NCBI GenBank assembly: GCA_964469155.1
Contig: CAYXXU010000010.1
Span: 306 to 64,305, forward strand
Reading direction: 5' to 3'
DNA length: 64,000 bases
DNA from: an uncultured Bacteroidales bacterium
Lineage (GTDB): Bacteria > Bacteroidota > Bacteroidia > Bacteroidales > CAIWKO01
Part shown: piece by piece, positions 6,026 to 62,527 of the stretch
How the letters are laid out: each line of letters opens with the position of its first letter
How positions within the stretch are numbered: the stretch's first letter is position 1
Notes under the pieces: model-generated
Told to the model about the DNA's origin: nothing
Database searches by the model: none
The model's input: only the letters and a program-made list of their open reading frames with translations
Made by a program: the position numbers and the translations under genes

Positions 6026-8560
6026 CTAATTCAGCACGATTACCTTTTTTATGCAGTAACCTTTTGCGGTGGCGATCTTCACAAAATAAGTTCCTGAAAC
6101 AAGATTCGAAACGTCAAGTGTAATATTTTTTGAGGGCTGTTTCTCTTCCGTGTTTTTTATCATGCTGCCAACAATATTGAAAAGGGTAATACTAATGTTG
6201 CCATCTGTTTTTCCCACGACATCGATATTTACAGATCCTTTTGCCGGATTGGGATAAATAGTGAAATCGCCCGAAATGTCAGATTCCTGAATGCCTAAAT
6301 AGTTGTATAATGGGGCTTCCCATATTCCCCGTCCATAGGTGGCTGCCCTGATTTTCCCAATACCATAGTTAATTTCCAGTTCCCTAACACCCACATTGGG
6401 GAGGTCGGTGTTGTATGCTATCCAACTGGCCATGGTTGAATCTTTAAAAAATATTCCTACTTCCGTACCCACATATAAGGCGTTATTTGCATTTTTCTGA
6501 AATGTAATACAATTGAGCCCCATGCTGGTTAGATTGCCTGTGATATTGGTAAAGGAAGTTCCTGCATTTTTTGAATACAGTACCTTGTCAGAACCGTTGG
6601 AGGTAACCGCAAGCCAGATCTTAGCCGCATTGTCGGGGTCGATGGTTATGCCGGAGATATACTGGCCGGGAGCGGGGTTGAAGGTGTTCCAGTTGGTGCC
6701 GCCATTGGTGGTGACATAAAGGGTTCCGTTGCGCGAAGCATAGATATAATTGTTATTGGATGCTGCTACTACCAGGTTATTCAGATTATCGCCCCCGGTA
6801 AGATTGTTGGAAATGGGGGTCCATGACATGGCTCCGTCGGTGGTGGCAAATACCTCCTGATAGCCCGCCCACAACATGTTTCCATTTGCAGGATCCATCA
6901 CATAAGGAGTAATCCAGCCGCCGTCGAGGGTATCGACTGGTTTGGCATTGTTGAAATTGTCGCCCCCGTCTTCCGATTTCAAAATACCGCCCATCTGGTA
7001 GGTTACGTATATAGTGTAAGGGTCGTTATTGCTAATGATGGCTTCCATGCCATCGGCGCCGAAAACATGCGTCCACTGACCGTTGTACAGGAGGTTTGAG
7101 CCAACATCCTGAGCTCCTGCAGCTATCTTATAGGGTTCGGATTCGCAGCTTCCCATGCGGTAGAACTGACTGATGCCAAGGCCGTTGCTCAGATCGACCC
7201 ACGAACCTCCATGATCGGCTGTGTAGAAAATGCCGCCGTCGCTTCCGCAATAGAGGGTGTCGCCATAGAAGTTGAGCGAATGAATGTCGCAATGGATGTA
7301 GTTGTAAGGGGTGCCTGTGTTCCACATGGTGTTTACGGTGAAGCTGGAGCCACCATCAGTCGATTTCCAAACATTAACGCCGCCCACATAAACCTCGTTG
7401 GCATTGTTGGGCGAAACGGCAAGCGCCAGGTCGTACCATGCCTGCCCTGAGTTGTCGCTGCCATCGTCTGCATAGCCAAGAATATTGGGCGCATTGCAGC
7501 GTGCGGTAAAAGTAAGGCCCGCGTCGGTGGAACGATACACGCCTTCGAAAGTATTATCGGGACGTGAAACTACTGCATACACATAATTTGCGTTGCTTTG
7601 GGTAACATCAATTTCTATCCTTACGGTATCGCTGGGTATGCCCGAGGTGATCTTGGTAAAGCTGTTGCCTCCGTTGGATGATCTGACAAAGAACGATCCG
7701 CTGCCATAAATAACGGTGGTATCGTTGGGTCTGAACTTCAGGTCTTTCACTTCCGTGGCGTTGTATATCAATTGCCAGGTGGCGCCAGCATTTTTTGAGC
7801 GGTAAATGCCTTCGTTGGATGCTGCAAATATCTTGTTCGGATTGAGGGGATTGATCAGAATCTTGTTGAAGTTGCGGTAGGTGGGTGAGAAATGCATTCC
7901 GGTGGTATTCCAGGTGGAGCCCCCGTCGGTCGATTTATAGATCCCGGTGCCTTTGGTATCCCAGGCATCGCGGTCGCCGGTGCCCAGATAAATGATGTTG
8001 TGATCGGTGGGATGTATGGCAATGGCTGAAGTTCCCAGCACGGGCATGGTATCGAAGGTAGTGTTCCACGTCATGCCCCCGTCGTTGGTTTTCCACATGC
8101 CTCCTGAAGGCGCCGCCACATAAATGTTGTTACGGTTTTGCATATCGACCGTAACGGCATTCAGGCGGCCGTTGCCGGGATTGTAACCGCTTATGCCGTT
8201 GCTCCATGAGGTCAATCCCAAAGGAAGCCATGAGGCAGGCGATTTGCTGTTCTTAACTGTGGGGTTCTGCGAGAGGAATTTTTTGTATTCATTATAATAT
8301 TTCAAAGGTTCGGGGAATTTTCCATCGGGGTAGCAACGGGGTTCCATAAGGTACTCCCAACGTTTGAATTGCTTGTAGCCTTTGCTGCGCTGGTAGGGCC
8401 GGTCGCCCCAATATTTATAAAAAGCTTTCTGAATGTCGTAGAAGGTAGCTTCTGACTTTGCCTTTTCCAGAAAGGGCGGTTTCATCCAGGGCTGGGCAGA
8501 AACGCGACCGTAAAGACTCAGAATGACAAGGGTCAGCATTATGGCAAAGAGCTTTTTCAT
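6026..8560 (-). CDS. secreted BNR/Asp-box (sortilin-like) beta-propeller protein with T9SS type-A C-terminal sorting domain
   Basis: 844 aa with a signal peptide (MKKLFAIMLTLVILSLYGRVSAQ). More than 10 Asp-box motifs S/TxDxGxT/SW/F are present (TNDGGMTW, STDGGSTW, SKNAGATW, STDGGSSF, TADHGGSW, TTDGAMSW, TTNGGTNW). The last ~80 aa read as a classical Por_Secre_tail domain (FTIYPNPAKGSVNIDV ... GTYFVKIATAKGYCIKKVIVLN). Confidence 0.8.
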   Translation of the reverse strand: MKKLFAIMLTLVILSLYGRVSAQPWMKPPFLEKAKSEATFYDIQKAFYKYWGDRPYQRSKGYKQFKRWEYLMEPRCYPDGKFPEPLKYYNEYKKFLSQNPTVKNSKSPASWLPLGLTSWSNGISGYNPGNGRLNAVTVDMQNRNNIYVAAPSGGMWKTNDGGMTWNTTFDTMPVLGTSAIAIHPTDHNIIYLGTGDRDAWDTKGTGIYKSTDGGSTWNTTGMHFSPTYRNFNKILINPLNPNKIFAASNEGIYRSKNAGATWQLIYNATEVKDLKFRPNDTTVIYGSGSFFVRSSNGGNSFTKITSGIPSDTVRIEIDVTQSNANYVYAVVSRPDNTFEGVYRSTDAGLTFTARCNAPNILGYADDGSDNSGQAWYDLALAVSPNNANEVYVGGVNVWKSTDGGSSFTVNTMWNTGTPYNYIHCDIHSLNFYGDTLYCGSDGGIFYTADHGGSWVDLSNGLGISQFYRMGSCESEPYKIAAGAQDVGSNLLYNGQWTHVFGADGMEAIISNNDPYTIYVTYQMGGILKSEDGGDNFNNAKPVDTLDGGWITPYVMDPANGNMLWAGYQEVFATTDGAMSWTPISNNLTGGDNLNNLVVAASNNNYIYASRNGTLYVTTNGGTNWNTFNPAPGQYISGITIDPDNAAKIWLAVTSNGSDKVLYSKNAGTSFTNITGNLTSMGLNCITFQKNANNALYVGTEVGIFFKDSTMASWIAYNTDLPNVGVRELEINYGIGKIRAATYGRGIWEAPLYNYLGIQESDISGDFTIYPNPAKGSVNIDVVGKTDGNISITLFNIVGSMIKNTEEKQPSKNITLDVSNLVSGTYFVKIATAKGYCIKKVIVLN

Positions 8561-31326: not shown

Positions 31327-31401
31327 GATTACCTTTTTAAGAAATTTAGTAGCAGGATTTGTGGCCTGATGCCGGAAATAATCCAAAACATGACATATAA
31401 T

Positions 31402-34400: not shown

Positions 34401-34695
34401 CGGGGCTCAGGTACAGGTCCATGCCAAGCGCTTTTTTACCCATGGCAATGCCTTCTTCATATTTTTCGAGCTGATAATAGGTCAGTGCCTGTTCGACAAC
34501 GGCAATATAATAATTGGTATCATTTTCCGGAATCTGACTGTATTCCTTCAGGGCCAGTTCGTATTTTCCATCTTCGTAGTATTCTACTCCTTTTTTGATC
34601 TTATCCGAAGAGTTGATAATTTCGGGTTTATCCTGGCTGAATGTGGCGCTGCTGAGCAGACAGAATACAAAAAGCAAAAGGGATTTGTTTCTCAT
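31402..34695 (-). CDS. secreted TPR-repeat plus MORN-variant (YwqK-like) repeat protein
   Basis: ORF 31402-34734. I prefer the start MRNKSLLLFVFCLLSSATFSQ (ATG 34695). The N-terminal ~230 aa are TPR-like. More than 20 tandem ~23-aa repeats of the form G.w..Yy.nGk....g.y..gk..G follow, which is the MORN variant type. Confidence 0.7.
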   Translation of the reverse strand: MRNKSLLLFVFCLLSSATFSQDKPEIINSSDKIKKGVEYYEDGKYELALKEYSQIPENDTNYYIAVVEQALTYYQLEKYEEGIAMGKKALGMDLYLSPELYTDMGCCYDNLQKYGDAVALYEAGSKLFPKANMLYFNKAFSLTKLEKNKEAFECYKKSEALNPFHPGTHYALGILAMNEGKTSLALLAFSTYILLDPDSKMANNALLCINEMVTTKYEESVHPKGLDITDGDDFSEIDILIKNYVALNKKYKVPSKLNFSFIKQDYLLFDKLPDDPETKGFWYKTYVPFYKQLLKDNKFDLFATYLLQASANEAHKKIVEKNKSRLSGFVEWFKNAWDNQHRQYDMEFNGKLQKVDVFRANKRFAISSFGVLNSAKTDYLGYTEFYHANGKLKAKGIFVEDGKKDGEWIWYHENGNLKTKATYVKGELISYDSYSLLGIIESHIPYKSDKIDGEGIAYSNEGAKDKTISFKNDIRDGIYEEYYSNGQVYFTGTNKNGKLDGPVKTYYSSGELMSEVNYLEGKKNLSETLYFRNGKIRQKANYVKGVLQGDFISYYENGQVSDSIKYLNDKPVGKNILFFENGVVSVTADFDETGKLNGVRKEYDTDGKIYNEREYRKGEIISYKYYNKKGQVVKEDKKKSGTFDFESFYSTGMKSSSGVYGKEDKQGEWKFYDKNGNIESISRFVDGKSVGEAKSFFTNGKIEKILHYKDDLADGYYVEYYKNGNINSHGNYLKDDVEGYWATYNPDKSLAGENFYIEGQKNGIQRKYSITGKIFETETFYKGVLLSSMNYDSLGNVIDSIGYTNASGLKSYHFYKGGPVKSEINIQYGNFNGDYVFYFPNGKINVKGQFFNGYKNGKWTWYYWNGNVSTTGNYKYGDTDGKWEYYTEDGKLDRIVNYRNGKRNGKDISYYENGKPEYDCEFIDGLLEGVSLYYSPDGQLEHKRLFLHDQLLSYTYFDASGKEKTTEVDNETAEITIYLKNGKIARQYTVNKGLYQGPYKRYYSTGQLYEISNYKDDDVSGENIYYYPNGQVKEKRNYVDGEPDGYILQYYPDGKLKESVNYISGTTHGKCRKYDKNGKLIAVLTYYNDEVVGISDK

Positions 34696-34820
34696 GTTTC
34701 CGGTTTTTTTTGATTCATAAAAATAATTCGACAAATTTAAATGGTGTAAATTAATAAAACAAGAAAATATTAAAATTTCTTTAAAATAATTTACAGTGTT
34801 TGGTTATCAGATGCCGGGGA

Positions 34821-34925: not shown

Positions 34926-37900
34926 CTAGGGTCTTATCACTTGCACGGCTGGTGGCTTCGAATTATTGTCTATTATAGTCATATCAGAACCATCCACAAT
35001 GCCATCGCCGTTTACATCCTCAGGAAAGTATCCCAGTAAAGCAGGAGGTTTACTGGCATTGTCTATCAACAACATATCTGTTCCGTCAACAATGCCATCC
35101 TGAAGTCCTGACACAGCAATATCACCGGCCCAGATAGCCCATATAGTACCCATTGATTTTAGGTTACTGCCATAACCCATATTCTGTGCTGTTGTGAAAT
35201 CCCAATTGAAAGGACCAGCACCACTAAAATCAACCCAATCGCCACTCCAGGTTTCTATGCTGTTGCGATGTTTTATTACTATATAGTAGGTACCTGTGAT
35301 GGTGCCGGGAAGGGTGGGAATAGTTAAGGTCCCATCAGCATTAAGTTCCACACCAATGTATGTGTAAGCCAGGGTAAATGGAGTAACTGATTGGTACAAT
35401 TCAACCCTTACGGTATCGACTACCGGTGCTGTGAATTTTGGACCGGCAACATCCTGTGCCTGGTTCATAGTGCCTGTAGATGTATTATATAAACCTTCGA
35501 GGAAGAGTTTCACATTAAGGGTTTTGGTAGTTGGAGCTGGCACATACACTTCAATATCATCAATCAGCCAGGCATGTGCATACGTTCCTTCATATAAAAA
35601 TGCAAGTTGTATGGTGTTACCGGCATAAGCAGAAAGGGAAACTACAGCCTGTTCCCAGGGCTCTAATACGGTGGTTGGGGACCATACCACATCATAAGTT
35701 TGCCAGCCATCGGAGGAAACCAGTACAGAGTTTTGTCCATAGTCAGCTGGATATACATTGTACGACCAAAAAGAAAGTTCTACATTAGTCGCTGCCGGAA
35801 GAACCAATTCAGGTGAAAACACTGCCCCAGATTCTGCATAACCAGAAGCACCATACAAATGTCCTATGCTCTGGGTTCCGCCGGGAGTGTGATTGTCAGT
35901 GTACAATGTCCAATTTTCTCCTCCGCCATCTATATCCTGCACTGTCCAACAACCAAGTGATGGAGATGTGGGCTCAAAATCTTCGGTAAAAGGAAGTGAG
36001 TAGGCATTGCAGGGGGTTGTGAAAGTAAAAGGACCTGCCCAGACCGATGTCCCATTGCTACCACAATTCGATTGCACATAAAAATCATAAGAAGTAGAAG
36101 CTGTTAATGTACCTATTGGTATAGAATAAGAATTCGCTGTCAGACCATTAACCGCATTGCCTCCGACATGATTAAAGCCTTCCAGTCCCCAATCAATATT
36201 CCATAAAGTACCGGTTGGGTCGGTCCATCCCAGATCAGCGCCTGTTTGTGTGAGATTGGTAATAGTAAGTGACGTTGGGGCAGGACAGGATGGTGATTCA
36301 TTTACAAGAATATCATCAATCAGCCAGGCATGAGCATACGTTCCTTCATATAAAAATGCAAGTTGTATGGTGTTACCGGCATAAGCAGAAAGTGAAACTA
36401 CAGCCTGCTCCCAGGTTGCTTCTGCAACTGTAGTTGGTGCCCAAACTACATCGTAAGTTTGCCAGCCATTGGTCGAAACCAGTACAGAATTTTGTCCGTA
36501 GTAGCTTGCATCCAAATTGTATGACCAAAATGACAGTTCAACAATAGTTGCTGCAGGCAGAATCAACTCAGGCGAAAACACTGCACCAGACTCAGCATAA
36601 CCAGAAGCCCCATACAAATGTCCAATCCCCTGGGCACCGCCGGGGGTATGATTGTCAGTGTACAATGTCCAATATTCTCCTCCACCATCAATATCCTGAA
36701 CCGTCCAGCAACCGAGTGATGGAGATGTGGGCTCAAAATTTTCAGTAAAAGGAAGCGAGTAGGCATTGCATGGAGTCATGAAAGTAAAAGGTCCGGCCCA
36801 GGCAGATAACCCCGTGGCACCACAATTTGATTGCACATAGAAATCATAAGAAGTAGATGCCGTTAGTGTACCTACAGGTATTGTATAAGAATTAGATGTC
36901 AGGCCATTCACAGGGTTTCCACCTGTATGATTAAAGCCCTGAAGGCCCCAATCAATATTCCATAAAGTGCCTGTTGGATCGGTCCAGCCCAAAACAGCGC
37001 CTGTTTGTGTGAGATTGCTAACAGTAAGTAAGGTGGGTGCAGGACAAATAACACCTTCAGTAATACTTACCAAATCCAATCCAATAAAAGCACCATCAGT
37101 TTGATTGTCTGCTACATGTTCGTTAAATGCAATATACACATTCTGACCGGCATACCCAGTCAATGGAATAGTAAATTGTTTCCAATCTCCCTGTATCAGT
37201 TGAGAATTATTAATGGCCAAAAGAGTTGTTGTAAAACTTGCCACGGCATTTGTCGTAGTTGATATTTTTATGTCTACATAATCAGCATAAGCCGAAAACA
37301 AATACATATAAAAGCTCAATTGGGCATTGGCCGGCACTGCAATTTGAGGTGAAATAAGCCATTGGTCGTTAGAGCTGGCACCACCGGTTGTCCAGGTGCA
37401 ATAGGCTGCTTTTGACCCACCGCCAGTAGGAACTGTCATCGTTCCACCTGTAAATCCTGGCAAGGGAGTAGTCCCGGATGTAATAGAAGCCCATCCTGTG
37501 CCGCCGTCGGGGCTTGATTTTGACCAGCATGCAGGTGGAAATACACCTCCTTCGAAACTCTCTGAAAAAGGAGTATTAGAGATTGCACAAACCGTTGAGA
37601 AGGTATATGGGCCTGACCAAACGCTATTAATACTTCCCGCACAATTGGACCGTACATAATACTGGTAAACAGTGCCTGAAGAAAGACCGGAAATAGGATT
37701 ATTGGTGCTTGAACCGGTAGAGGTTCCTGATCCGGTGGGTTGAGCCAGGGGTGCTACTCCATATACATATTCCCAGGCAGTAGCAGTTCCGTTGGGTGTC
37801 CAGGTTAAATTAGCAGAGTTGGTGGTTATTGAGGTAGCATTTAAAGCGCTTGGGGCCAGGCAGGCCGGAGGCGGACCCACCTGGGCTTCAATACCGTATT

Positions 37901-39410
37901 TAAGATCGCTTCCTGTCGGAAGAGCGGTTAAAGTTCCGCCGGATAAAGACATCACATAATAAAAAGTATTATCACGCTGGGGAGTTTCAGAATATACACC
38001 AACGGGATAATACTGCGCAGTACCTGCAGTCTGGGCGAAACCAATGTAAAAATCGGCATTGGTAAATGAAGGAGGTACAGGAAAAGAAAAATATTTAGTA
38101 GTACCCAAATCACCAGCCTGAACCACATAACTTCCGCTTGTTGCCACAATACTTCCGCTGCTGTTCATAACAACGGCATAAATGGTGTTTCCGGTAGTGG
38201 CAGCGTCGGACGAAATTACTAGGTTTGCTCCATTCACATATCCCAATCCATGCATGGTAAATTTTGAAGCAAAAATTCCGGCGTTAGGATAAGTAAATCC
38301 ATATCCTCCTGAGTTTGCAAGGCTGTAACTATATCCAAAAAGATTCGAATTTACATTGACGGGTATGGTCAAAGTATTATTTGATGGCCATGTTTCACCA
38401 GCAATAGTTGAGGTTGTGGCTGTTATATTAACATTTTCCTGCAGGGTGGGTGACCATGCTGTAAAATTGACAACAGATGAACTGTTTGCAGCCAATGCCG
38501 TTACATTTTGGGTGGCGGTATATCGGGTGGTTGAGGTGGCCTGATCTTTAACAGTTATGGTAAGGTCGAAGGTTTTGGCCGCACTTGTTAAATTGTTAAC
38601 CCTCACGCCCACAGTGCAAGGAACTCCGTAAACCGTCGGAACTTTTTCAGTGGTATAAATATTTGTTACAGAGATCACATCCTCATACGAAGAAGTACCA
38701 ATGCGGGTAATCGGTCTGTGTAAGGCTGCCGTTAAAGTTGCCGGTAAACTTGAAGTACTTCTGGCACTTGCAATTCCATTCGTCAGGTCGGTATTAGTAT
38801 CATAATAGGTTGCCACGGTGCCTGCAGTGCCTGTTGAGCTAAATTCCCAGGCTATATAAAGACCTGATCCCGTATATGTAAATGATGAACCTCCTGTAAA
38901 CGGAACATCGTAGGTGCCGACAACTAAAGGAGTTGTCCAACTGGTATTGTTACAGGCAAGGGTGAAACCTGAAATGGCCGTGGCCCAAGTAGTGGAAAGT
39001 AAAAAGGTGGTATTGGTGGTATTAAGGAGATAGATTTTTAATGTGCCGGTTAATGCACCTGTTCCGGCCTGCATTATCGACCATCCTATCGAATTAATAA
39101 CAGAAGAATTTGGCAAACCCGAAGCAGCCATTTCTGCAGGTGTTAACAGATAGATACTTCTTTGGTATTTGTAGGTATTTCCGGGAGCCCGTCCACTGGA
39201 AGAATAGCCGTTGGCCACAGAAGGAGCGGATAATATCGGGGAACTCTTTGGCATGATGTAAGGAGTTACCTGATTTAGTGTCGTAGCCTTGTGTGCATAA
39301 ACTGCTGAGGCCTCGCTTCCCACAACTCCGGTTGTGGCCTGCGATTTAAATTGCCCGAAACTGCTTCCTATGAAAACTAAGGAAACCAAAAATAATAATA
39401 ATTTCTTCAT
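34926..39410 (-). CDS. large secreted multidomain surface protein: Fn3-like and choice-of-anchor-J/cleaved-adhesin-like (MAM-like) modules, C-terminal dockerin-like VIRP module
   Basis: ORF 34926-39614. I prefer the start MKKLLLFLVSLVFIGSSFGQ (ATG 39410), giving 1494 aa. It contains three Fn3-like segments (SALNATSITTNSANLTWTP ... YYVRSNC) and three adhesin-like modules (PFSESFEGGVFPPACW ...; PFTENFEPTSPSLGCW ... twice). The last 199 aa are shared with 39796-40599 and 50547-56699. Confidence 0.8.
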   Translation of the reverse strand: MKKLLLFLVSLVFIGSSFGQFKSQATTGVVGSEASAVYAHKATTLNQVTPYIMPKSSPILSAPSVANGYSSSGRAPGNTYKYQRSIYLLTPAEMAASGLPNSSVINSIGWSIMQAGTGALTGTLKIYLLNTTNTTFLLSTTWATAISGFTLACNNTSWTTPLVVGTYDVPFTGGSSFTYTGSGLYIAWEFSSTGTAGTVATYYDTNTDLTNGIASARSTSSLPATLTAALHRPITRIGTSSYEDVISVTNIYTTEKVPTVYGVPCTVGVRVNNLTSAAKTFDLTITVKDQATSTTRYTATQNVTALAANSSSVVNFTAWSPTLQENVNITATTSTIAGETWPSNNTLTIPVNVNSNLFGYSYSLANSGGYGFTYPNAGIFASKFTMHGLGYVNGANLVISSDAATTGNTIYAVVMNSSGSIVATSGSYVVQAGDLGTTKYFSFPVPPSFTNADFYIGFAQTAGTAQYYPVGVYSETPQRDNTFYYVMSLSGGTLTALPTGSDLKYGIEAQVGPPPACLAPSALNATSITTNSANLTWTPNGTATAWEYVYGVAPLAQPTGSGTSTGSSTNNPISGLSSGTVYQYYVRSNCAGSINSVWSGPYTFSTVCAISNTPFSESFEGGVFPPACWSKSSPDGGTGWASITSGTTPLPGFTGGTMTVPTGGGSKAAYCTWTTGGASSNDQWLISPQIAVPANAQLSFYMYLFSAYADYVDIKISTTTNAVASFTTTLLAINNSQLIQGDWKQFTIPLTGYAGQNVYIAFNEHVADNQTDGAFIGLDLVSITEGVICPAPTLLTVSNLTQTGAVLGWTDPTGTLWNIDWGLQGFNHTGGNPVNGLTSNSYTIPVGTLTASTSYDFYVQSNCGATGLSAWAGPFTFMTPCNAYSLPFTENFEPTSPSLGCWTVQDIDGGGEYWTLYTDNHTPGGAQGIGHLYGASGYAESGAVFSPELILPAATIVELSFWSYNLDASYYGQNSVLVSTNGWQTYDVVWAPTTVAEATWEQAVVSLSAYAGNTIQLAFLYEGTYAHAWLIDDILVNESPSCPAPTSLTITNLTQTGADLGWTDPTGTLWNIDWGLEGFNHVGGNAVNGLTANSYSIPIGTLTASTSYDFYVQSNCGSNGTSVWAGPFTFTTPCNAYSLPFTEDFEPTSPSLGCWTVQDIDGGGENWTLYTDNHTPGGTQSIGHLYGASGYAESGAVFSPELVLPAATNVELSFWSYNVYPADYGQNSVLVSSDGWQTYDVVWSPTTVLEPWEQAVVSLSAYAGNTIQLAFLYEGTYAHAWLIDDIEVYVPAPTTKTLNVKLFLEGLYNTSTGTMNQAQDVAGPKFTAPVVDTVRVELYQSVTPFTLAYTYIGVELNADGTLTIPTLPGTITGTYYIVIKHRNSIETWSGDWVDFSGAGPFNWDFTTAQNMGYGSNLKSMGTIWAIWAGDIAVSGLQDGIVDGTDMLLIDNASKPPALLGYFPEDVNGDGIVDGSDMTIIDNNSKPPAVQVIRP
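35547..37046. repeat. intragenic tandem duplication, 2 x 750 bp (250 aa Fn3 plus adhesin-like module)
   Basis: The two Cys codons that open the CPAPT motif of each copy lie at 37046 and 36296, exactly 750 bp apart. The protein copies (CPAPTLLTVSNLTQTGAVLGWTDPTGTLWNIDWGLQGFNH ... and CPAPTSLTITNLTQTGADLGWTDPTGTLWNIDWGLEGFNH ...) are roughly 90 percent identical by eye. Confidence 0.9.
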
Positions 39411-39685
39411 AATAATACTGTCTTTTAGGTTAATAATAAATGAATGATAAATTATAATAGATATGTTTATTAAAAAATTAGGAGGTGCTAATGTACAATA
39501 AATATTTGCTTGAGGCAAATTATTATGATTGTTTTTTTCAACTTTCTTCAATCCTGTTTTGTAAATAGCTGTTAGTGGTTTTTTTAATAGATATTTTGAC
39601 CTGATTTCAGCCATAGGGATTTAGCGAAATGATGAAATTATACCCTATTATTATTACTGCTATCGGCATTAGGCTGACAAAGGCA

Positions 39686-39795: not shown

Positions 39796-40599
39796 TTATG
39801 GTCTTATCACTTGCACTGCCGGTGGCTTCGAATTATTATCGATCATGGTCATATCCGAGCCATCCACAATGCCATCGCCATTTACATCCTCAGGATAATA
39901 TCCCTGCAAAGCAGGGGGTTTGCTGGCATTATCAACGGCAGTCATATCCGAACCATCGACGATTCCATCCTGTGTTGGATCGCCGCCCCAGATGGCATAA
40001 ACTGTGCCCATCAGCTTTTGATTATTGCCATAGGCCTGCGAAGCTGCTGTGCTGAAATCGTAACTGAATGGGCCTGCTCCACTAAAATTGTAAGGTTGGG
40101 CGCTCCATGTCTCTATACTATTCCGGTGCCTGATGGTAATATAGTACGAACCATTAGTATTTGAAGGCAGATTATTGATCTGAAGGCTTCCATCAGTATG
40201 CAGGTCAATATTATTGTCCTCGTAGAATATTCCATAGGGGGTAGCACTGTTATGCAATTCAACACTTACTTTGTCGGCAATGCCGGCTGAGAATTGCGGC
40301 CCTGAAGTGCCTTGTGCCTGGTTCATCATACCTCCTCCGGCATAGAGGCCTTCCAGAAATATTTTTATGGCTATCTGTTTTGCCATAATCTGCTGCCAGG
40401 TTTGCAGGAAACCTTGTGAGAGTGTGACGCTGCTGCCCGCCTGGGTGCCTATGATGGGTTCGCCTATGGCGAAGGCAAGGTAGCCTCCACTATATTGAGT
40501 ACTACCGCCCATGGAGTTTATTACTACGGGCTGAACCTGTTGTGCCTGCAAGGAGAGGCAGAGGGCGAGGATACTGAATGTTATTATTAGCTTTTTCAT
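39796..40599 (-). CDS. small secreted protein consisting of signal peptide, ~50-aa N-terminal segment and a stand-alone copy of the dockerin-like VIRP module
   Basis: 267 aa with a signal peptide (MKKLIITFSILALCLSLQAQ). Residues ~74-267 align over their full length with the C-termini of the 34926 and 50547 proteins (IFLEGLY ... HRNSIETWSA ... GDPTQDGIVDGSDM ... EDVNGDGIVDGSDM ... NSKPPAVQVIRP). The ATG is 10 nt after the stop of 40610-43159. Confidence 0.8.
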   Translation of the reverse strand: MKKLIITFSILALCLSLQAQQVQPVVINSMGGSTQYSGGYLAFAIGEPIIGTQAGSSVTLSQGFLQTWQQIMAKQIAIKIFLEGLYAGGGMMNQAQGTSGPQFSAGIADKVSVELHNSATPYGIFYEDNNIDLHTDGSLQINNLPSNTNGSYYITIRHRNSIETWSAQPYNFSGAGPFSYDFSTAASQAYGNNQKLMGTVYAIWGGDPTQDGIVDGSDMTAVDNASKPPALQGYYPEDVNGDGIVDGSDMTMIDNNSKPPAVQVIRP

Positions 40600-45833: not shown

Positions 45834-45875
45834 GGGTGGTTGGTTTATAATGTTTGTAATTAAGGAAATGGGTAA

Positions 45876-45883
45876 CAAATATA
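45876..45883 (-). promoter_or_regulatory. candidate -7 promoter box for the fibre operon
   Basis: Minus-strand TATATTTG (TAnnTTTG) lies 43-50 nt upstream of the ATG at 45833. A second match, TATTTTTG, is at 45913-45920. Confidence 0.35.
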
Positions 45884-47802: not shown

Positions 47803-48465
47803 CTAATTCAGTTTGATCAGCCCGTTTCTCAGGGCATATTTCACCAGGTCGGCAATAGTTTTCAGTTCGAGTTTTTCCATAATACTGACCTTATGGCTTT
47901 CGACGGTGCGCGGACTGATAAATAGTTTTTTGCTTATCTGGTTATAGGTTAACCCATCGGCAAAGCCTTTCAACACCTCGGTCTCGCGGGGACTGAGGCT
48001 GTTGGCTGCCGATTGTTCTCGGCTATCGGCCGATGCAAGCATTTTTCTATGGCTTTTGAAAATGATACGCGATACCCTGTCGCCGTAATATTCCTCGCCT
48101 TCGGCAATGGTATGAATGGCTTCGAGAAACTCATCGGCCGAACATTCTTTTGTCAGATATCCCTTCACACCGCATTTCAGGGCGCAAAGCACCGTGCCTT
48201 CATCGCCTGCAGCCGAAAGCATCAGCACTTTGATATCGGGATATCTTTCTTTCACTTCCATGGCCATGATATTGCCGTCCATATCGGGCAGGTTGATGTC
48301 GAGTATCAAAATGTGAGGTTGCACGGTACGTAATTTCACGAGCATAGAGGCTGCATCGCCGGTTTCGGAAACTACTTCAATGCTGTTGTCGGCCATAAAC
48401 ATGGCCCTGATGCCATCTCTTACAATCTTATGGTCGTCGACCATCGCTACTTTTATCTTCTGCAT
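47803..48465 (-). CDS. NarL/FixJ (LuxR-type HTH) response regulator
   Basis: 220 aa. The receiver has VAMVDDH ... ILDINLPDMDG. The C-terminal LuxR HTH reads LSPRETEVLKGFADGLTYNQISKKLFISPRTVESHKVSIMEKL. The ATG is 12 nt after the kinase stop. Confidence 0.9.
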   Translation of the reverse strand: MQKIKVAMVDDHKIVRDGIRAMFMADNSIEVVSETGDAASMLVKLRTVQPHILILDINLPDMDGNIMAMEVKERYPDIKVLMLSAAGDEGTVLCALKCGVKGYLTKECSADEFLEAIHTIAEGEEYYGDRVSRIIFKSHRKMLASADSREQSAANSLSPRETEVLKGFADGLTYNQISKKLFISPRTVESHKVSIMEKLELKTIADLVKYALRNGLIKLN

Positions 48466-48477
48466 GTTCGATCCGAT

Positions 48478-50546: not shown

Positions 50547-53500
50547 TTACGGCCTTATCACATACACCGGCGGAGGTGCCGAATTGTTATCAACCATCGA
50601 CATATCCGACCCATCCACAATACCATCACCGTTAACATCTTCAGGATAATACCCATGGAGAATAGGGGGTTGGCTTCCATTATCAATAACCGACATATCC
50701 GAACCATCCACTATGCCATCCTGTGTGGGGTCGCCTCCCCAAATGGCATAAACTGTACCCATCAACTTCTGATTATCACCATAAGCTTGCGAAGCTGCTA
50801 TGCTGAAATCGTAACTGAAAGGACCCTGACCACTGAAGTCGTAAGGGAATGCACTCCAGGTTTCAATACTATTGCGGTGTTTGATGGTGATATAGTAGGA
50901 ATTGGTGGTGTTAGCAGGTAGATTGCTGAGCAGCAGCGTGCCATCGGTATGCAGGTCAATATCATTCACCTCGTAAAATATCCCGTAAGGGTTGGTATTG
51001 AAATGCAACGCTACATCCACCTTATCGGCGATACCAGCAGCAAATTGCGGCCCTGCATCACCCTGGGCCTGATTCATCAAACTGCCTCCGGCATATAGAC
51101 CTTCCAGAAATAGCTTTAGGTTTAATGTTTTGCTGCCTGAACCGGTAACGGTCAGATTCAGTGTAAAGGAACTATCGCAGCCATGTTTCGAAATGTAATT
51201 TGCATAATAGGTTCCTGCGGTAGTATAGTCTATGCCTTGCCAGGTAAAGGTTTGTCCGGTGCTGATAGTATGATTTTCAGTAATGTCATAGGAAGGATAT
51301 ATCATGGCAGTAACTTCCAGCCTCGAAGTACTTTCGCATCCGCCTATGGTCTGGCTTGCATAATAAAGGGTTGAGGTGGACAAAACATAAGAGGGTTGAA
51401 GCAAATTACCTCCGGTGGAAGCATCGTACCATTTAATTTCATTTCCGGTGGCCTGCAGACCGGCAATAGTGGCTTCATCGCAAAACGATTGCAGAGGATC
51501 TCCTGCAGGAGCATTGGCCATATTTACAGTAATTTCTACACTGGCACAAATACCCGTCGCGGCGCATCCTCCTTCGCCTCTGGCGAAATAAGTTGTGGTG
51601 GCAGTTGGTGAAACCAATAATGAACTGCCTGTGCCAATTGGTGTTCCTCCACATGAACCTTCATACCAATACCAGGTTTCAGCACCATTCAGATATCCTG
51701 CAATGACTGATAGGCTTACTTCTGAACCCATACAAATTGAATTGGATGTGGCACTCAGGGTGGGAACATCAGGTTGGGAGCAACCGATTTCTCCCAGTTG
51801 AAATTCACCAAATGATGTTACACCAAGAATTTGTGTACTGTTGGATGTTTTGTTACCCATGGTCGGATAGGTCCAGTTCGAGGCACTGTATTTTCCGCAA
51901 ACCAGATTGGATGTATTTACTCCGTTATCCAGATCACTTGTCGGGAAGTTGAAAACAGCATCATAAGTTGTAAATACTGTTCCTGTATTGCTTAAAGTCC
52001 AGGTGCGGTTTACCGTTTTAAGGTTGTTTATTTGCGATGCGTACAACACCTGATGATCGCCCGCTTGGGTTGATGCCATGATGTCGCCCGAAGTACTGAT
52101 ATTGGCAAAAGTCAATGCAACAGGAGTGTACATGGACGCAAGAGAATCGCCGGTTTCAAAAGTTTTGGACAGATTGCTGCCCGTAGCCATCTTTTTCTGC
52201 AGATTGCCAAATACGTGCCCCGATGTTCGTGCAACACTGGCCCCTGTCAGAATCAAACTGATCTTATTCTGCCCGGTTTTGATCACACCTGCTGTAAGTG
52301 TCAGGATGTTTCGGATATTGATGCCGGCATAGCCACTCAATGTCAGGCCGGCGGTGTTGTTGAGTGTCATGTTATAGAAGGTAGAATTATTGGTGCCACT
52401 ATGGGTTTGAGGAGCTGTCCCGTTAAAGGTAATGGAAGAACCTGTAGCAATACTCCCGTTATTTATAAAGTTACCCCCTGTTAAGAGCATAGTACCAATC
52501 CATAGAGTCCCGGCATTGATGGTAACATCATTTTTTACTGTAAGGTTAGAAGTAATAATATAAGCGGTAGGAGTCCCTGTTTCATTTATCAGCAGATTGT
52601 AGATGGGGGCAGTGCTGTATATCCTGATGATGGGGCTTCCTGATGTAGCAGCATCACCAATTTGCAGGGTTCCACCTGTAACATTATTGGTGGTTGCAAG
52701 ATTTTTATAGTCCGATGTACTGCTCGATGCCTTGGGTATAACAATGCTGCCACCGCTCATGGTGAAAGAGGATGCCGCATTGAAATCGAAAGGCGCAATA
52801 GATGTATTTGTTGAACCGAATTTGCAAACCGTAAACACCCCTCCCGATTGGTTGTAGGTAGTATTGCCGCCCGAATAAAACCTGCCTGCCACATTCAGTG
52901 TTCCGCCTTCAATGGTAATTTTTGAGTTGTTGTTATACACCAGATTATGGTCCTGTGCAGTTCCGATATTGATACTTCCGGCCGACATCCTGAGGAGGCC
53001 ATTGATGGTCCAACTGAAAGCACCTGCGGTAACAGTGCCGCCATTGTTCCAAAATCCGGCAAGTGCTACAATATTAACTGCAGAAGTAAAGGGGGTAATA
53101 ACTGATGCACTGGATAATTTAAAGGTCCCGCTGGTCAAGGTCAAAGGATTGGCTGCATTGGTCAGACCAATTAAGGAGGTTACTTCGAGAATCCTGTCCT
53201 GTGCACCTTTGACGAGGGTCAGCTTATTGAAATTTGTGACCGCCGAGCCTTTTACTGTTTGCAGATTATTAGTGCCGTTAAAGGTAATAGTTCCAATACC
53301 TGCCACAAAAGTACCATGATTTGTCCAGTCGCCGGCCACTTCCAGCAGGCTGCCCACCGAAGCGCTCATGGTAAGTGTGGCCCCTTCAGCTATGGTAATG
53401 TTTCTGCATCTGATATTGGACGTGCTGCTGATCAACGGCATATTGCTGACTCCTGCTGGTATATATACATCGGTAGTAGCAACAGGAACTGTATTATTGC

Positions 53501-56500
53501 ACCAGTTGGTTGCTACATTCCATGCCGTGCTGGTTGCACCTGTCCATATTCCTGTACAACTGCTCACCTGAATATCATCAATGGCCCAATAATAACCATA
53601 GCTGCCCGAATAATTCCATTTGAATTTTACCTGCGACTGTCCTGCAGCCCCTGGCACCGAAAATGACGCAGGCGCCGGATTGGTGGTTGATGCACTGAAA
53701 GTGCTTATCAGGTTCCATGTGGCTCCGTTATTAATGCTGTAATATACACTGGCACTGCTGCCGGTAGCATGCCTGTAATAATGATTGAAGGTCAAACTTA
53801 CAAAGGAATTTGCTGATAAATTGATGGTAGGAGTGATCAGGTCGGCATTTTGGGAAAAACCTGATCCATAGTCAAAGCTATTCAAATAGGCATAATTTCC
53901 GTTCAGTAAAGGAAGGTTCCCATCCTGGAAGGCCCCGGATTTCCAAACCTGTCCGATACCTGACTGATCCAGTTGGGTCCAGCAGTCCGGAATGGACGAA
54001 CCGTCAAAACTCTCAGTGAATGGAGCAGTATAAATACTACACATGGTTTGGGCGCTAACCATGGTTCCGCTCGAGTAGTTCAAGGAACCATCCACCGACC
54101 ATATCTTGTAATGATAAACTACATTTGTTGTTAAGCCGGTATGATTAAAAGATGTTAAACTGCCTGAATAAAGCACTGTTCCTCCTCCGGAGATGGTGTT
54201 TCCTGCTGAATAGCTTGCTCCGTTAACAGGAATACCAAATGTTGGAGCGGCCGACCATACTACCATAACATCATTGTTGTTTGAATTTTGGGTCCAGGTC
54301 AGGTCTATCTGGCTTGTCCCTGTCGCCGATACAGTAATATCAGATGGGTCGATAACCGTATATTCGATCAGGTCGCTTTGCCACAAACCACGTCCATAGG
54401 TCGCTGCTTTAATGCGGTTATTTGAGGCATTCGAAGGGTCGTAATAAATTTCAAGCTCCCTGATATCCACAGGGGGAAGTCCTTGCGAATAAAGCACCCA
54501 GTTTGGCATATTGGCATCTTTAAACCAGACCCCGGTCTGGTTTCCTATATAAAGCCCTTCATCACTGTTTTTATCATAGACCACACAATTGATAAAAAGG
54601 GGAGGCAGGTTACCGCTGATATCGGTCCAGGAGATACCCTTATCCGATGATTTGAAAACCTTATAACCGGCAGTAGCAAAGACAATATTCGCGTCATTGG
54701 GATGTGCCTCCATATCCGTGGGAGTAAGACCCAGAGGAAGTGCACATTGGGTCCAGCTAACACTGCCGGCGCTTGCATTTACATTGTCCGACCTGATAAT
54801 AGCACCATTTCTGACACCATACATCACATCCACATTGGCCGGCGATTGTTCTAGAACCCTTACCACATCTCCGGAAGGTGATATTTCTTCCCACGTTATC
54901 TGTGAAACAGCTGATTTAACATTCAAACACCGCTGAATACTCTGATAACCCAAAAACATAGTGTTCGGATTGGTTTCATGAAGTGTGTAAGGCGTCACCC
55001 AGGCATTATTGACCCAGACGGCCCCTCCGGTGATATAATTATAGGTGCTGCCCGTTGAACGGTAAATAGCTCCTGACTGATTGCTTACATAGCGGTAGTT
55101 GGCATCTGTGGGATCAATAAGGCATTCCATGCCGTCTCCGCCAATAACAGTAGTAAGATTGCCGTTGTCAGCAAAAGCGCTTCCATTGTCCTGTTCGCCA
55201 AGCATAACATAGCCTGCATGGGTCTTGCTCTGCCCGATCTTATAAACCTGGGCAATGGCCAATCCTGAGGATATCTCACTCCATGATGAACCTGAGTTGC
55301 CTGTCCAATGCACACCACCATCGTTTCCGGTAAAAAGCCTGGCTGTATGAGGCGACCATTCCAGACAATGGTGGTCAGCGTGAACTGAGGCAGCTCCGCA
55401 AGTGCTGTATGAACTTCCTTCCCAATGGGCAACTATCGAAAAACTTAAGCCTCCGTCAGTGGTTTTCCAGATATTGATACCTCCTATGTAAATGGTGTTT
55501 ACATCGGTTGGATCAATAGCCATGCACATATCGTAGACTGCCTGGCTCGATGCATCGGTACCGTCGCACATATATCCCATAAGATTTTTATAGCTTGATT
55601 GGGTGATATTCGTAAAATGTAAGCCATTGTCAGTTGACGTTCCTAAAGAGGAAAACGATTGATAAGGACCTGTTTTCAGCAGTACAACAAGAGAGGGATT
55701 TGCCGCGGATACGCCTATTACCATGCGGGGTCCCAGGCTGTTTCCTTCGCTGATATTGGTCCAGAGTTCACCACCATCAGCGGAACGGTAGAACTTTGAA
55801 CCATTGGAGGAGAATAATGCGGCATAAACTATGGATGGATCGCCGGGCTTATATTTTATATCCCTGAAATCACCCGCTTGTTTCAGACTCCAGCTACTGC
55901 CTCCGTTGATGGTTTTATATACACCTGTCTTTGTGGCTGCCAGAATGATATTGGGATCGGTGGGATGCATTAACATGGCTCCCACGGTAACATCTCCCAT
56001 AGTGCTATTGATCTGGCTCCAGCTGGCACCGCCATCAATCGATTTGAATACTCCCATTCCCGGTGCATCCCCTGCATCGCGATCGCCCGAGCCAATATAT
56101 ATAATGTCGGGATTGGTAGGATGAATCAAAATGGATGAAACACCCAGCTTAGGAAGGTCGTTCGACAGGTTGATCCAGGTGAGTCCGGCATCAGTGGTTT
56201 TCCAAAATCCCCCCGAAGGCGAACCCACATAAATTGTATTGGCATCGGTGGGATGAAATGCCAGGGCATTTACACGTCCCATACCGGTGGGTTGCACGGT
56301 AGCGTTGGCAGGATAGGAGTCCGGACCAACCAGGGTCCAGGTGCCCGTAGCCGATTTGTTGGGCAGTTGGGTTTGCATGTATTTGTTGTATTCGTTGCTG
56401 ACATACCCGGGTGCCTGCAATTTGCCATTGGGAAGTACTCGCGATTCGTTGATATATTCCCAACGTTTAAACACTTTATAGCCATTCCCCTTATAATTGC

Positions 56501-56699
56501 TTTTATTTTTCCAGTATGTATTAAAAGCGCTCTGAGCAGCAGTAAAGTCAACATCCGGGTCCTGTATCATTTCGAGCCACGATTTGCTGCCGGAATGCTG
56601 CACTAAATTGTCTTTTTTGGTTTGACTTATGACATGATTGCTTATTAGAAAAGCAAAAATCAGTATGAAATTCCTTATAAGACGCGCTGTAATATTCAT
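50547..56699 (-). CDS. giant secreted surface protein: BNR/sortilin-like propeller, Fn3, adhesin-like module, long beta-helix-like region, Ig-like Cys-rich modules, C-terminal dockerin-like VIRP module
   Basis: 2050 aa.
- The N-terminal ~770 aa are paralogous to 6026-8560 (shared YKVFKRWEY motif and Asp-boxes such as TTDAGLTW, SIDGGASW, TINGGSSW, TTDGGLSF, SSDKGISW).
- Then Fn3-like (DITVSATGTSQIDLTWTQ) and an adhesin-like module (PFTESFDGSSIPDCW).
- Then ~700 aa of G/T/N-rich beta-helix-like repeats, followed by Cys-containing Ig-like modules.
- The last ~194 aa are KTLNLKLFLEGLY ... HRNSIETWSA ... GDPTQDGIVDGSDM ... EDVNGDGIVDGSDM ... PPPVYVIRP. Confidence 0.85.
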   Translation of the reverse strand: MNITARLIRNFILIFAFLISNHVISQTKKDNLVQHSGSKSWLEMIQDPDVDFTAAQSAFNTYWKNKSNYKGNGYKVFKRWEYINESRVLPNGKLQAPGYVSNEYNKYMQTQLPNKSATGTWTLVGPDSYPANATVQPTGMGRVNALAFHPTDANTIYVGSPSGGFWKTTDAGLTWINLSNDLPKLGVSSILIHPTNPDIIYIGSGDRDAGDAPGMGVFKSIDGGASWSQINSTMGDVTVGAMLMHPTDPNIILAATKTGVYKTINGGSSWSLKQAGDFRDIKYKPGDPSIVYAALFSSNGSKFYRSADGGELWTNISEGNSLGPRMVIGVSAANPSLVVLLKTGPYQSFSSLGTSTDNGLHFTNITQSSYKNLMGYMCDGTDASSQAVYDMCMAIDPTDVNTIYIGGINIWKTTDGGLSFSIVAHWEGSSYSTCGAASVHADHHCLEWSPHTARLFTGNDGGVHWTGNSGSSWSEISSGLAIAQVYKIGQSKTHAGYVMLGEQDNGSAFADNGNLTTVIGGDGMECLIDPTDANYRYVSNQSGAIYRSTGSTYNYITGGAVWVNNAWVTPYTLHETNPNTMFLGYQSIQRCLNVKSAVSQITWEEISPSGDVVRVLEQSPANVDVMYGVRNGAIIRSDNVNASAGSVSWTQCALPLGLTPTDMEAHPNDANIVFATAGYKVFKSSDKGISWTDISGNLPPLFINCVVYDKNSDEGLYIGNQTGVWFKDANMPNWVLYSQGLPPVDIRELEIYYDPSNASNNRIKAATYGRGLWQSDLIEYTVIDPSDITVSATGTSQIDLTWTQNSNNNDVMVVWSAAPTFGIPVNGASYSAGNTISGGGTVLYSGSLTSFNHTGLTTNVVYHYKIWSVDGSLNYSSGTMVSAQTMCSIYTAPFTESFDGSSIPDCWTQLDQSGIGQVWKSGAFQDGNLPLLNGNYAYLNSFDYGSGFSQNADLITPTINLSANSFVSLTFNHYYRHATGSSASVYYSINNGATWNLISTFSASTTNPAPASFSVPGAAGQSQVKFKWNYSGSYGYYWAIDDIQVSSCTGIWTGATSTAWNVATNWCNNTVPVATTDVYIPAGVSNMPLISSTSNIRCRNITIAEGATLTMSASVGSLLEVAGDWTNHGTFVAGIGTITFNGTNNLQTVKGSAVTNFNKLTLVKGAQDRILEVTSLIGLTNAANPLTLTSGTFKLSSASVITPFTSAVNIVALAGFWNNGGTVTAGAFSWTINGLLRMSAGSINIGTAQDHNLVYNNNSKITIEGGTLNVAGRFYSGGNTTYNQSGGVFTVCKFGSTNTSIAPFDFNAASSFTMSGGSIVIPKASSSTSDYKNLATTNNVTGGTLQIGDAATSGSPIIRIYSTAPIYNLLINETGTPTAYIITSNLTVKNDVTINAGTLWIGTMLLTGGNFINNGSIATGSSITFNGTAPQTHSGTNNSTFYNMTLNNTAGLTLSGYAGINIRNILTLTAGVIKTGQNKISLILTGASVARTSGHVFGNLQKKMATGSNLSKTFETGDSLASMYTPVALTFANISTSGDIMASTQAGDHQVLYASQINNLKTVNRTWTLSNTGTVFTTYDAVFNFPTSDLDNGVNTSNLVCGKYSASNWTYPTMGNKTSNSTQILGVTSFGEFQLGEIGCSQPDVPTLSATSNSICMGSEVSLSVIAGYLNGAETWYWYEGSCGGTPIGTGSSLLVSPTATTTYFARGEGGCAATGICASVEITVNMANAPAGDPLQSFCDEATIAGLQATGNEIKWYDASTGGNLLQPSYVLSTSTLYYASQTIGGCESTSRLEVTAMIYPSYDITENHTISTGQTFTWQGIDYTTAGTYYANYISKHGCDSSFTLNLTVTGSGSKTLNLKLFLEGLYAGGSLMNQAQGDAGPQFAAGIADKVDVALHFNTNPYGIFYEVNDIDLHTDGTLLLSNLPANTTNSYYITIKHRNSIETWSAFPYDFSGQGPFSYDFSIAASQAYGDNQKLMGTVYAIWGGDPTQDGIVDGSDMSVIDNGSQPPILHGYYPEDVNGDGIVDGSDMSMVDNNSAPPPVYVIRP

Positions 56700-58396: not shown

Positions 58397-58482
58397 AGTT
58401 CTTTTTTTAGATCGTTACATATACTGATTTATGTGTGAAGGAAATACTTTGGTACAATGATGATTTTTATGCCAAAGGATCA

Positions 58483-59175: not shown

Positions 59176-59224
59176 GGTGTTATGTTTTTGTTTTTATCTA
59201 TAATATTTTTTAAACAAAATTAAT

Positions 59225-59232
59225 CATATTTG
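59225..59232 (-). promoter_or_regulatory. candidate -7 promoter box for 58483-59175
   Basis: Minus-strand TAATTTTG (TAnnTTTG) lies about 50 nt upstream of the ATG at 59175. Confidence 0.3.
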
Positions 59233-59311
59233 AACAAAATTGCAAATAAAATGGAATGATTCTTAATAACAGGAACCGAAAAGTGCTGCCAGTATAATTG
59301 ATTTTCCCGGA

Positions 59312-60022: not shown

Positions 60023-60064
60023 AATGATATTAGTAAAGTTTCAATTTCTATTGGTAATATCCTG

Positions 60065-60592: not shown

Positions 60593-60599
60593 AATTCGG

Positions 60600-61829: not shown

Positions 61830-61883
61830 TGTATTATAATTTAAAATTGTGATTCATTTTTACATCAGGATTGCTCCAAGTTT

Positions 61884-62438: not shown

Positions 62439-62527
62439 ATTTTTACGGATATTAATTTTAACTGATCTTCAGATGCCTCACCCCTTTGGGCAGGGGCAGG
62501 AAGCATCTGAAAACCAGCATTAATTTT

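Follow-up and report, generated by a model that had tools for sequence, protein, structure and literature searches.

What does a long C-terminal tail, shared by several secreted proteins of one organism, do for the proteins that carry it? The question is raised by a 64,000-nucleotide (nt) stretch of DNA from an uncultured Bacteroidales bacterium (contig CAYXXU010000010.1; the whole stretch is called the window below), in which three minus-strand genes have in common a C-terminal module of ~195 amino acids (aa), each copy of which stops at VIRP. A first-pass annotation, made from the letters of the window, had described this module and had named sorting, anchoring and partner docking as its candidate roles. 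Judged by sequence and predicted fold together, the module appears to be a dockerin, preceded by an immunoglobulin (Ig)-like sandwich. We think it probable, with modest confidence, that it is a dockerin-type docking module, which would plug cargo and scaffoldins onto cohesins anchored by way of T9SS (type IX secretion system).

Three secreted proteins share a C-terminal module

The copies at the ends of genes 1, 2 and 3 (Table 1) are 61, 58 and 78% identical to one another in pairwise protein comparisons and 65, 62 and 76% identical in DNA, which confirms the first-pass proposal of three proteins sharing one C-terminal module. The motifs listed for it (K.(L/I)FLEGLY, MNQAQ, GP(K/Q)F, YYI.I(K/R)HRNSIETWS and two D...DGIVDG(S/T)D loops) are present in each copy. 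All three module stretches are open on the minus strand, and their plus-strand translations are riddled with stops. When a profile of the family was run against a six-frame translation of the window, exactly three copies were recovered (E 3e-81 to 4e-99), values that exclude chance. That the three copies arose by recent duplication or by gene conversion was ruled out by the DNA identity of 62–76% and by a longest identical DNA run between copies of 20 nt; the three are old paralogous modules.

As had been proposed, all three module proteins begin with a signal peptide, of the signal peptidase I (SPI) type as read from the sequence. The longest open reading frame (ORF) of gene 1, 34926..39614, opens with a 68-aa leader (39410–39614) that holds no signal peptide; the signal peptide, MKKLLLFLVSLVFIGSSFGQ, begins at Met69, at position 39410, and the true start is therefore probably 39410 rather than 39614. 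A lipoprotein route was ruled out, the homologues of the 267-aa product of gene 2 lacking the Cys and genes 1 and 3 having no lipobox. Gene 1 encodes three choice-of-anchor J/MAM-like domains plus fn3 (Pfam/NCBIfam), and gene 3 encodes a BNR/sortilin-like propeller (F510_1955-like), MAM/reelin-like domains and Ig_7 (CHU_C-associated).

The module resembles a dockerin in sequence and an X-dockerin dyad in predicted fold

Dockerin_1 (PF00404) was the only Pfam family to match the module, over its last ~55 aa; no model in Pfam or NCBIfam covered the module as a whole, and no Pfam model matched its sandwich part. Measured against the Dockerin_1 gathering cut-off of 22.9 bits, gene 2 scored above it (26.7 bits) and genes 1 and 3 below it (13.5 bits each, through the second loop only in gene 1 and through profile positions 2–54 of 57 in gene 3). 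Across the family, Dockerin_1 was found in 19 of 45 scanned members (E <= 1e-3), and the family profile, searched against the sequences in PDB, matched dockerins only, across both loops (best E 3.5e-4). These matches uphold the paired dockerin-like Ca loops of the first-pass annotation. In an alignment of 84 sequences, Asp or Asn at loop positions 1, 3, 5, 9 and 12 was invariant or at least 90% conserved (D134, D138, D145, D165, N167, D169, D173 and D176 among them), except at position 9 of loop 1 (D142), which fell below 90%; the HRNSxET motif of the sandwich was near-invariant in the same alignment. Among the Ca ligands, the exception is loop 1 of window copy 1, GDIAVSGLQDGIVDGTD, with S/L at loop positions 1 and 3, so that two DxxxDGxVDxxD loops per copy, as claimed at first, are the general rule but one loop is atypical. 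Within copy 2, the two loop-helix segments are identical to each other at 18 of 22 positions.

To model the module (copy 2), AlphaFold2 was run on the 84-sequence alignment, and it returned a confident structure (predicted local distance difference test, pLDDT, 97.8; predicted template modelling score, pTM, 0.92); a pTM of this size indicates that the beta-sandwich and the dockerin-like part form one rigid unit. The model holds a ten-strand beta-sandwich (residues ~1–131), matching the ~130-aa beta-rich part noted ahead of the loops, followed by two loop-helix repeats with helices at 143–152 and 174–183. Both helices are 10 residues long and start at position 10 of their DxNxDGxVDxxD loops, the F-hand geometry seen in dockerins. 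The segment after each loop (DN.SKPP) had been judged not dockerin-like; in the model it is a short dockerin helix, and it is therefore more dockerin-like than was thought.

The nine best Foldseek matches in PDB were all chains of type II cohesin-X-dockerin (XDoc) complexes of Clostridium thermocellum and Acetivibrio cellulolyticus (4wi0_B, 5m0y_B, 2b59_B, 4u3s_B, 5g5d_B, 4fl4 and 3kcp), with E-values of 2e-6 to 2.5e-5, probability 1.0 and ~190 aligned columns. For the 156-aa targets the template modelling (TM) score, normalised to the target, was 0.62–0.66; for the ~305-aa cohesin-X-dockerin chains 4fl4 and 3kcp it was 0.35. Since the 60-aa dockerin alone would give a TM of at most ~0.38, the sandwich must also superimpose on the X module, in a similar position. 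The next matches were generic transthyretin-like, CarboxypepD_reg and DUF3823 sandwiches (E > 7e-3), and no structure of a T9SS C-terminal domain (CTD) was among the 50 best matches listed. A strong full-length match to a characterised family, the outcome that the first-pass annotation had named as telling against its view, was thus found by fold but not by sequence.

A large family on secreted proteins of Bacteroidales

The 220 hits of a protein search, none of them named, came from metagenome bins of uncultured Bacteroidales, Lentimicrobium and Chitinophagales, and a scan of one genome per species gave at least 596 matches, the best 80 of which all lie in metagenome-assembled genomes (MAGs) of Bacteroidales or Lentimicrobiaceae. 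Many loci per genome occur among the matches listed (at least 9 in the MAG Cfx3-02, for example). An exhaustive profile search, which covered 1.84 billion cluster representatives (clusters at 50% identity), recovered 3,517 clusters at E <= 1e-30, 8,371 at E <= 1e-10 and 15,395 at E <= 1e-3. In the literature we found no account of this X-dockerin-like family of 195-aa modules, its size or the sandwich conserved in it, and no link between Lentimicrobium and dockerins. The presence of dockerins in Bacteroidetes is on record (PMC6487960).

A crude signal-peptide test was passed by 72 of 84 complete carriers; in most of the others a signal peptide can be seen or the start was mis-called. Among 45 carriers surveyed with Pfam, GEVED was found in 11, fn3 in 7, PKD and CUB in 6 each, BACON in 4, MAM in 3, and Peptidase_S8 and cohesin in 2 each, besides esterases, Peptidase_M14 and Peptidase_C25. 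The module can also be repeated or displaced from the end: behind its signal peptide the 405-aa protein P0129 has two modules in tandem and nothing else, the 1313-aa protein P0131 carries six divergent tandem modules (with an HRNHLSV variant and degenerate second loops), and three of the 150 best matches (P0144, P0236 and P0256) hold an internal module. By eye, the tail of P0131 is like a T9SS CTD, and this protein may need such a tail besides its modules; the tail scored a weak 11 bits with our local CTD hidden Markov model (HMM) and had no Pfam match at E <= 0.01, and we did not use it as evidence.

The commonest close relative of the small protein encoded by gene 2 is a conserved subfamily of ~265 aa, composed of a signal peptide, a ~50-aa N-domain (VINSxGGS...GEPxxG...LSQGFLQ; at 40381–40539 on the minus strand in the window) and the module, with members P0002–P0014, P0110, P0118 and L001:2366-3157. 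The ~50-aa N-domain had no match in Pfam or NCBIfam.

Cohesins accompany the module in several related genomes

The partners expected for a dockerin are present in related genomes. Calls of cohesins, CTDs and modules in metagenome loci were made with locally built HMMs and checked with Pfam for nine proteins; the cohesin of one carrier, P0098, seeded a cohesin profile that was iterated locally over the fetched loci, with matches confirmed by Pfam. Several proteins in these loci combine two or three cohesins (plus Big_2 or PKD_6) with a terminal module (L017:3739-6573, L059:3742-6573, L052:3-2603, L075:4264-6570, L076:5077-6573 and L065:5473-6579), and P0098 likewise joins two or three cohesins to the module. 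Directly upstream of such cohesin-module genes there is often a gene for a cohesin protein with a T9SS type A CTD, such as L065:4484-5467, which comprises cohesin, PKD_6 and Por_Secre_tail (42.5 bits), or L059:3-3731 and L017:3-3656, which join a beta-helix, a canonical Dockerin_1, a cohesin and Por_Secre_tail. Large proteins of this last type (right-handed beta-helix, full-length Dockerin_1, cohesin and type A CTD) recur at L084:52-5745 and L085:1-5336, and because they hold both a dockerin and a cohesin they could self-associate or be an anchoring hub.

A protein search with the P0098 cohesin found no matches and missed its own parent too; a profile of 19 cohesin sequences found 8 proteins, five of them ~260-aa combinations of cohesin and PF18962, and on the contigs of the ~260-aa proteins the genes are grouped as [beta-helix...cohesin...CTD][cohesin+CTD][3 cohesins + Big_2]. 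Among 26 loci selected for cohesins (24 of them from a metagenome scan with a five-sequence cohesin alignment), the local HMMs identified 54 cohesin ORFs, of which 23 have a T9SS CTD and 5 the module; module-cohesin fusions occur in 5 of the 26 loci. Starting from the module instead, 6 of 79 related loci were found to have cohesin genes. At L094, L096, L098 and L091 as many as seven cohesin genes follow one another, and among them are multi-cohesin ORFs (Coh4, Coh6) that have neither a T9SS CTD nor the module. As far as gene order and domain content can tell, the arrangement of cohesins, modules and CTDs in related genomes is that of a cellulosome, in which scaffoldins terminate in an XDoc and the anchoring proteins bear cohesins, with the T9SS CTD in the place of S-layer homology (SLH) or sortase anchors.

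With whole-module superposition on X-dockerin dyads and cohesins in related genomes, the partner-docking option of the first-pass annotation is strongly supported. In the mechanism that we propose, an Ig-like beta-sandwich (an 'X module' by fold) would pack on a short dockerin of two Ca2+-binding loop-helix segments, and this unit would tag the extreme C-terminus of adhesin-like giants, peptidases, esterases and multi-cohesin scaffoldins, all made with signal peptides. The module may then plug its carriers, in a Ca2+-dependent manner, onto cohesin modules of proteins that presumably rely on a T9SS type A CTD for their own export and surface tethering. Such binding to T9SS-anchored cohesins would anchor the cargo on the cell surface, giving a cellulosome-like display in which most of the cargo is not cellulolytic.

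Docking weighed against a role in export

Models of T9SS sorting domains (type A, TIGR04183/PF18962; type B, TIGR04131/PF13585 CHU_C; and others) had no match in the three proteins at E <= 1, and the module belongs to neither CTD type A nor type B, as the first-pass annotation had judged. The classical type A tail that it had placed at 6026–6270 is genuine (TIGR04183 44 bits, cut-off 23; PF18962 63 bits) and served as positive control. The ORF that ends in this tail is 35% identical over 756 aa to the N-terminal propeller of gene 3; paralogous propellers thus end in a CTD in one protein and in the module in the other, which indicates the same cargo type with an alternative tail. In the related loci, a locally iterated CTD HMM found no T9SS CTD in 116 module carriers, while the same model matched 33 locus proteins (neighbours); of the 111 large neighbours that lack the module, Por_Secre_tail terminates 23 and CHU_C 2. 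The domain types of the carriers are those usually found on T9SS substrates.

These observations could mean that T9SS has a new, fourth class of C-terminal signal and that the module is this signal. T9SS would then recognise the beta-sandwich and the conserved C-terminus and take the cargo over the outer membrane, with the Ca loops as an addition for structure or retention, and later docking would still be compatible. We regard such a class as unlikely, though it ranks second after docking. The cargo belongs to classic T9SS types (GEVED, PKD, CUB, Peptidase_C25/S8/M14, choice-of-anchor J, Ig_7 'CHU_C associated'), the copies are many per genome, and the exclusivity of module and CTD and the differing tails of the window paralogue pair also speak for it. 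The placement of the module fits as well: from the YY..HRNS motif to the stop codon there are 103–105 residues in 91 of 97 occurrences at genome loci, which makes the module exactly C-terminal at a fixed stop distance, and it stands at the very end in ~145 of the 150 best cluster representatives. The ending VIRP, described as constant, is so within the window, but in the family at large conservation is confined to the final Pro (87 of 97 occurrences at genome loci). To our knowledge, no other export route exists for such Bacteroidota proteins. The signals that T9SS recognises, moreover, already include at least three CTD classes unrelated to one another (PMC10202324). Against a signal class stand the failure of the type A and B models, and of any other T9SS sorting model in the library copies of Pfam and NCBIfam (E <= 1), to match the module, the fold search, whose 50 best listed matches include XDoc dyads and no T9SS CTD, and the tandem and internal copies, which are ill-suited to a pure signal. 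Nor does a PorP/SprF-like gene recur beside module genes, unlike in type B: 418 locus ORFs clustered by BLAST and 103 mid-size neighbours surveyed with Pfam showed no such recurrent gene and no other dedicated neighbour.

Export could instead be borrowed. Cargo might bind carriers of cohesin plus T9SS CTD in the periplasm, after which T9SS would export the folded complex and the cohesin protein would serve as the covalent surface anchor. Small cohesin-CTD proteins (~260–330 aa) are common and adjoin module genes, module proteins have no CTD of their own, and folded proteins are T9SS substrates (PMC10202324); however, the literature searched held no case of T9SS co-transport of complexes, and non-covalently bound cargo of 2000+ aa would need to pass the translocon, so that we consider this route improbable. 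Taking both routes together, it is possible, though we lean against it, that the module rather than a canonical CTD is the export determinant of a very large class of Bacteroidales surface proteins via T9SS, either as a fourth, Ca-binding signal class or by hitch-hiking on periplasm-bound cohesin-CTD carriers.

A third alternative, in which the module would be a Ca2+-dependent glycan- or lipopolysaccharide-binding anchor (a transthyretin-fold sandwich like that of a carbohydrate-binding module, plus Ca loops) that attaches its carriers to the cell surface or a substrate with no cohesin involved, is very doubtful: the secondary fold matches to transthyretin-like, CarboxypepD_reg and DUF3823 sandwiches, a near-invariant HRNSxET that suggests a conserved small ligand or site and a window without a cohesin speak for it, but those fold matches are weak (E > 7e-3, against ~1e-6 for XDoc), the dockerin similarity holds in sequence, and fusion to cohesin repeats with adjacency to cohesin-CTD genes is the pattern of a cohesin-dockerin system.

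Several observations weigh against docking as the role of the module. The X-like sandwich has no sequence match to known X modules, the PDB profile alignment being confined to positions ~171–232 (the dockerin part); because sequence homology of the X part was looked for and not found, the module is XDoc-like by fold only. The Foldseek agreement is itself moderate (TM 0.52–0.66, root-mean-square deviation ~5 Å). Neither Pfam, run on 31 of the 37 ORFs of at least 150 aa (the three module genes included), nor an iterated cohesin HMM, run on the six-frame translation, found a cohesin in the 64-kb window, so that the partner in the window organism is unseen; in related genomes, a cohesin gene lies within 6 kb at only ~8% of module loci. 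When the cohesin-module fusion P0098 was folded, its cohesin had a pLDDT below 50 and was unusable, beside ~98 for the module. The terminal Pro, the fixed distance to the stop and the near-invariant HRNSxET resemble a machine-recognised tail more than a fast-diverging dockerin. Finally, docking alone leaves unexplained how SPI-exported carriers without a T9SS CTD cross the outer membrane. We nevertheless rank docking above a T9SS signal because of the tandem modules of P0129 and P0131, the internal copies, the agreement of fold and sequence with dockerin dyads, and the fusion to cohesin repeats. The two roles are mutually compatible.

Comparison with known systems

Clostridial type II XDoc dyads (C. 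thermocellum CipA and A. cellulolyticus ScaA; 2B59, 3KCP, 4FL4, 4WI0, 4U3S, 5G5D and 5M0Y) are the best and the only strong full-length structural matches of the module. In both, a C-terminal dockerin of two loops and two helices is immediately preceded by an Ig-like sandwich that packs rigidly against it, and, like CipA and ScaA, multi-cohesin proteins terminate in the module, though in relatives and not in the three window proteins. Unlike the type II dyads, the module has an X part without sequence similarity to known X modules, a larger sandwich (~130 aa versus ~95 aa) and shorter helices (10 residues); it is mostly found on enzymes and adhesins rather than solely on scaffoldins, its cargo is not cellulolytic, and its host is a diderm of the Bacteroidales in which the candidate anchors carry a T9SS CTD instead of SLH or sortase signals.

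With type I dockerins (PF00404) the module shares duplicated DxNxDGxVDxxD loops with a helix after each. It departs from them in that one window copy out of three reaches the cut-off and the others stay below it, the helix/linker (DNxS-KPP / xxF) is off consensus, a conserved sandwich always precedes the loops and Pro is usually the last residue. T9SS CTDs (types A, B and the ChiA-like C, cl41395) are comparable in occupying the extreme C-terminus of signal-peptide proteins, in having many paralogues per genome and in sitting on the same cargo families, whereas the module is twice as long, holds a dockerin, may be tandem or internal, and is matched by no T9SS sorting model in Pfam or NCBIfam at E <= 1.

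A precedent in architecture comes from Ca. Stygibacter (Cloacimonadota), for which a cellulosome-like system was proposed from InterPro domain annotation only (PMC8542988). As in our loci, signal-peptide enzymes (S8, C25, GH18) there have C-terminal dockerins, and a cohesin scaffoldin has a T9SS CTD for surface attachment; the phylum differs, however, and neither an X-like sandwich nor a defined 195-aa family was described (PMC8542988).

Other features of the window

The module-bearing genes, the parts of each module copy and the comparator ORF are listed in Table 1.

Table 1. Coordinates of the module genes, their module parts and the comparator gene in the window.
Feature	Position	Strand	Remarks
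Gene 1, ~1494-aa secreted protein	34926..39410	-	ORF reaches 39614; module C-terminal
Module copy 1, beta-sandwich (X-like) part	35118..35525	-	sequence, alignment, model, profile
Module copy 1, dockerin-like part, ends VIRP	34929..35117	-	loop 1 atypical, GDIAVSGLQDGIVDGTD; loop 2 canonical, DVNGDGIVDGSD
Gene 2, 267 aa	39796..40599	-	signal peptide, ~50-aa N-domain (VINSMGGS...LSQGFLQ) and module
Module copy 2, beta-sandwich (X-like) part	39988..40380	-	modelled residues 1-131, ten strands
Module copy 2, dockerin-like part, ends VIRP	39799..39987	-	loops DPTQDGIVDGSD and DVNGDGIVDGSD
Gene 3, 2050-aa secreted protein	50547..56699	-	module C-terminal
Module copy 3, beta-sandwich (X-like) part	50739..51131	-	sequence, alignment, profile
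Module copy 3, dockerin-like part, ends VIRP	50550..50738	-	two canonical loops
Comparator ORF, T9SS type A CTD (~6035-6259) at end	6026..8560	-	positive control, detected

Gene 2 begins 11 nt downstream of the first of two paralogous fibre genes (40610–43159 and 43236–45878, both on the minus strand), each of which encodes a signal peptide, a ~300-aa N-part that weakly matches Bdello_MAT_N, and collagen-like GXY repeats. The two C-parts are not alike, one having a repeat region with a Peptidase_S74 intramolecular chaperone and the other YadA-head repeats, and neither fibre gene has a T9SS CTD or the module. At L079 a related fibre gene (40% identity) likewise precedes a gene for a 259-aa module protein. 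Between the module and fibre genes, at 47803–50346 (minus strand), lie a FimS-like TPR sensor histidine kinase (48478–50346) and a LuxR-type response regulator (47803–48465), a pair with a possible regulatory role for the surface-protein island.

Directly downstream of gene 1, the regions 27434–31386 and 31402–34734 (both minus strand) hold a tandem pair of DUF3857/transglutaminase-like paralogues and a 1110-aa protein of TPR and MORN_2 repeats (LIC20035 adhesin-like). At 57695–63973 (minus strand) there are three hemerythrin-domain genes (two with ScdA_N and Hemerythrin, one with DUF438, Hemerythrin and PAS_10) and an F420_oxidored-domain (NADP oxidoreductase-like) gene, and a COX1-like oxidase subunit gene adjoins; this looks like a repair cluster for nitric oxide or oxidative stress.

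Implications

If the module is a docking module, many uncultured Bacteroidales and Lentimicrobiaceae of anaerobic digesters, sediments and lakes would assemble cohesin-dockerin complexes on their surface for peptidases, adhesins and esterases, with an X-dockerin plug and T9SS-anchored cohesin sockets in place of the SLH or sortase anchors of Gram-positive bacteria. Cellulosome-type logic would then reach a diderm phylum and non-cellulolytic cargo. For the T9SS field, the question would arise of how hundreds of classic-looking cargo proteins exit the cell without a known CTD, and hitch-hiking on cohesin-CTD carriers, if it occurs, would add to T9SS transport a mode that has yet to be described. 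Together with its cohesins, the module could also supply orthogonal parts for designer scaffolds in Gram-negative hosts. For the family as a whole, thousands of 'hypothetical' C-termini would gain a name, and the 3,517 clusters could seed a domain model.

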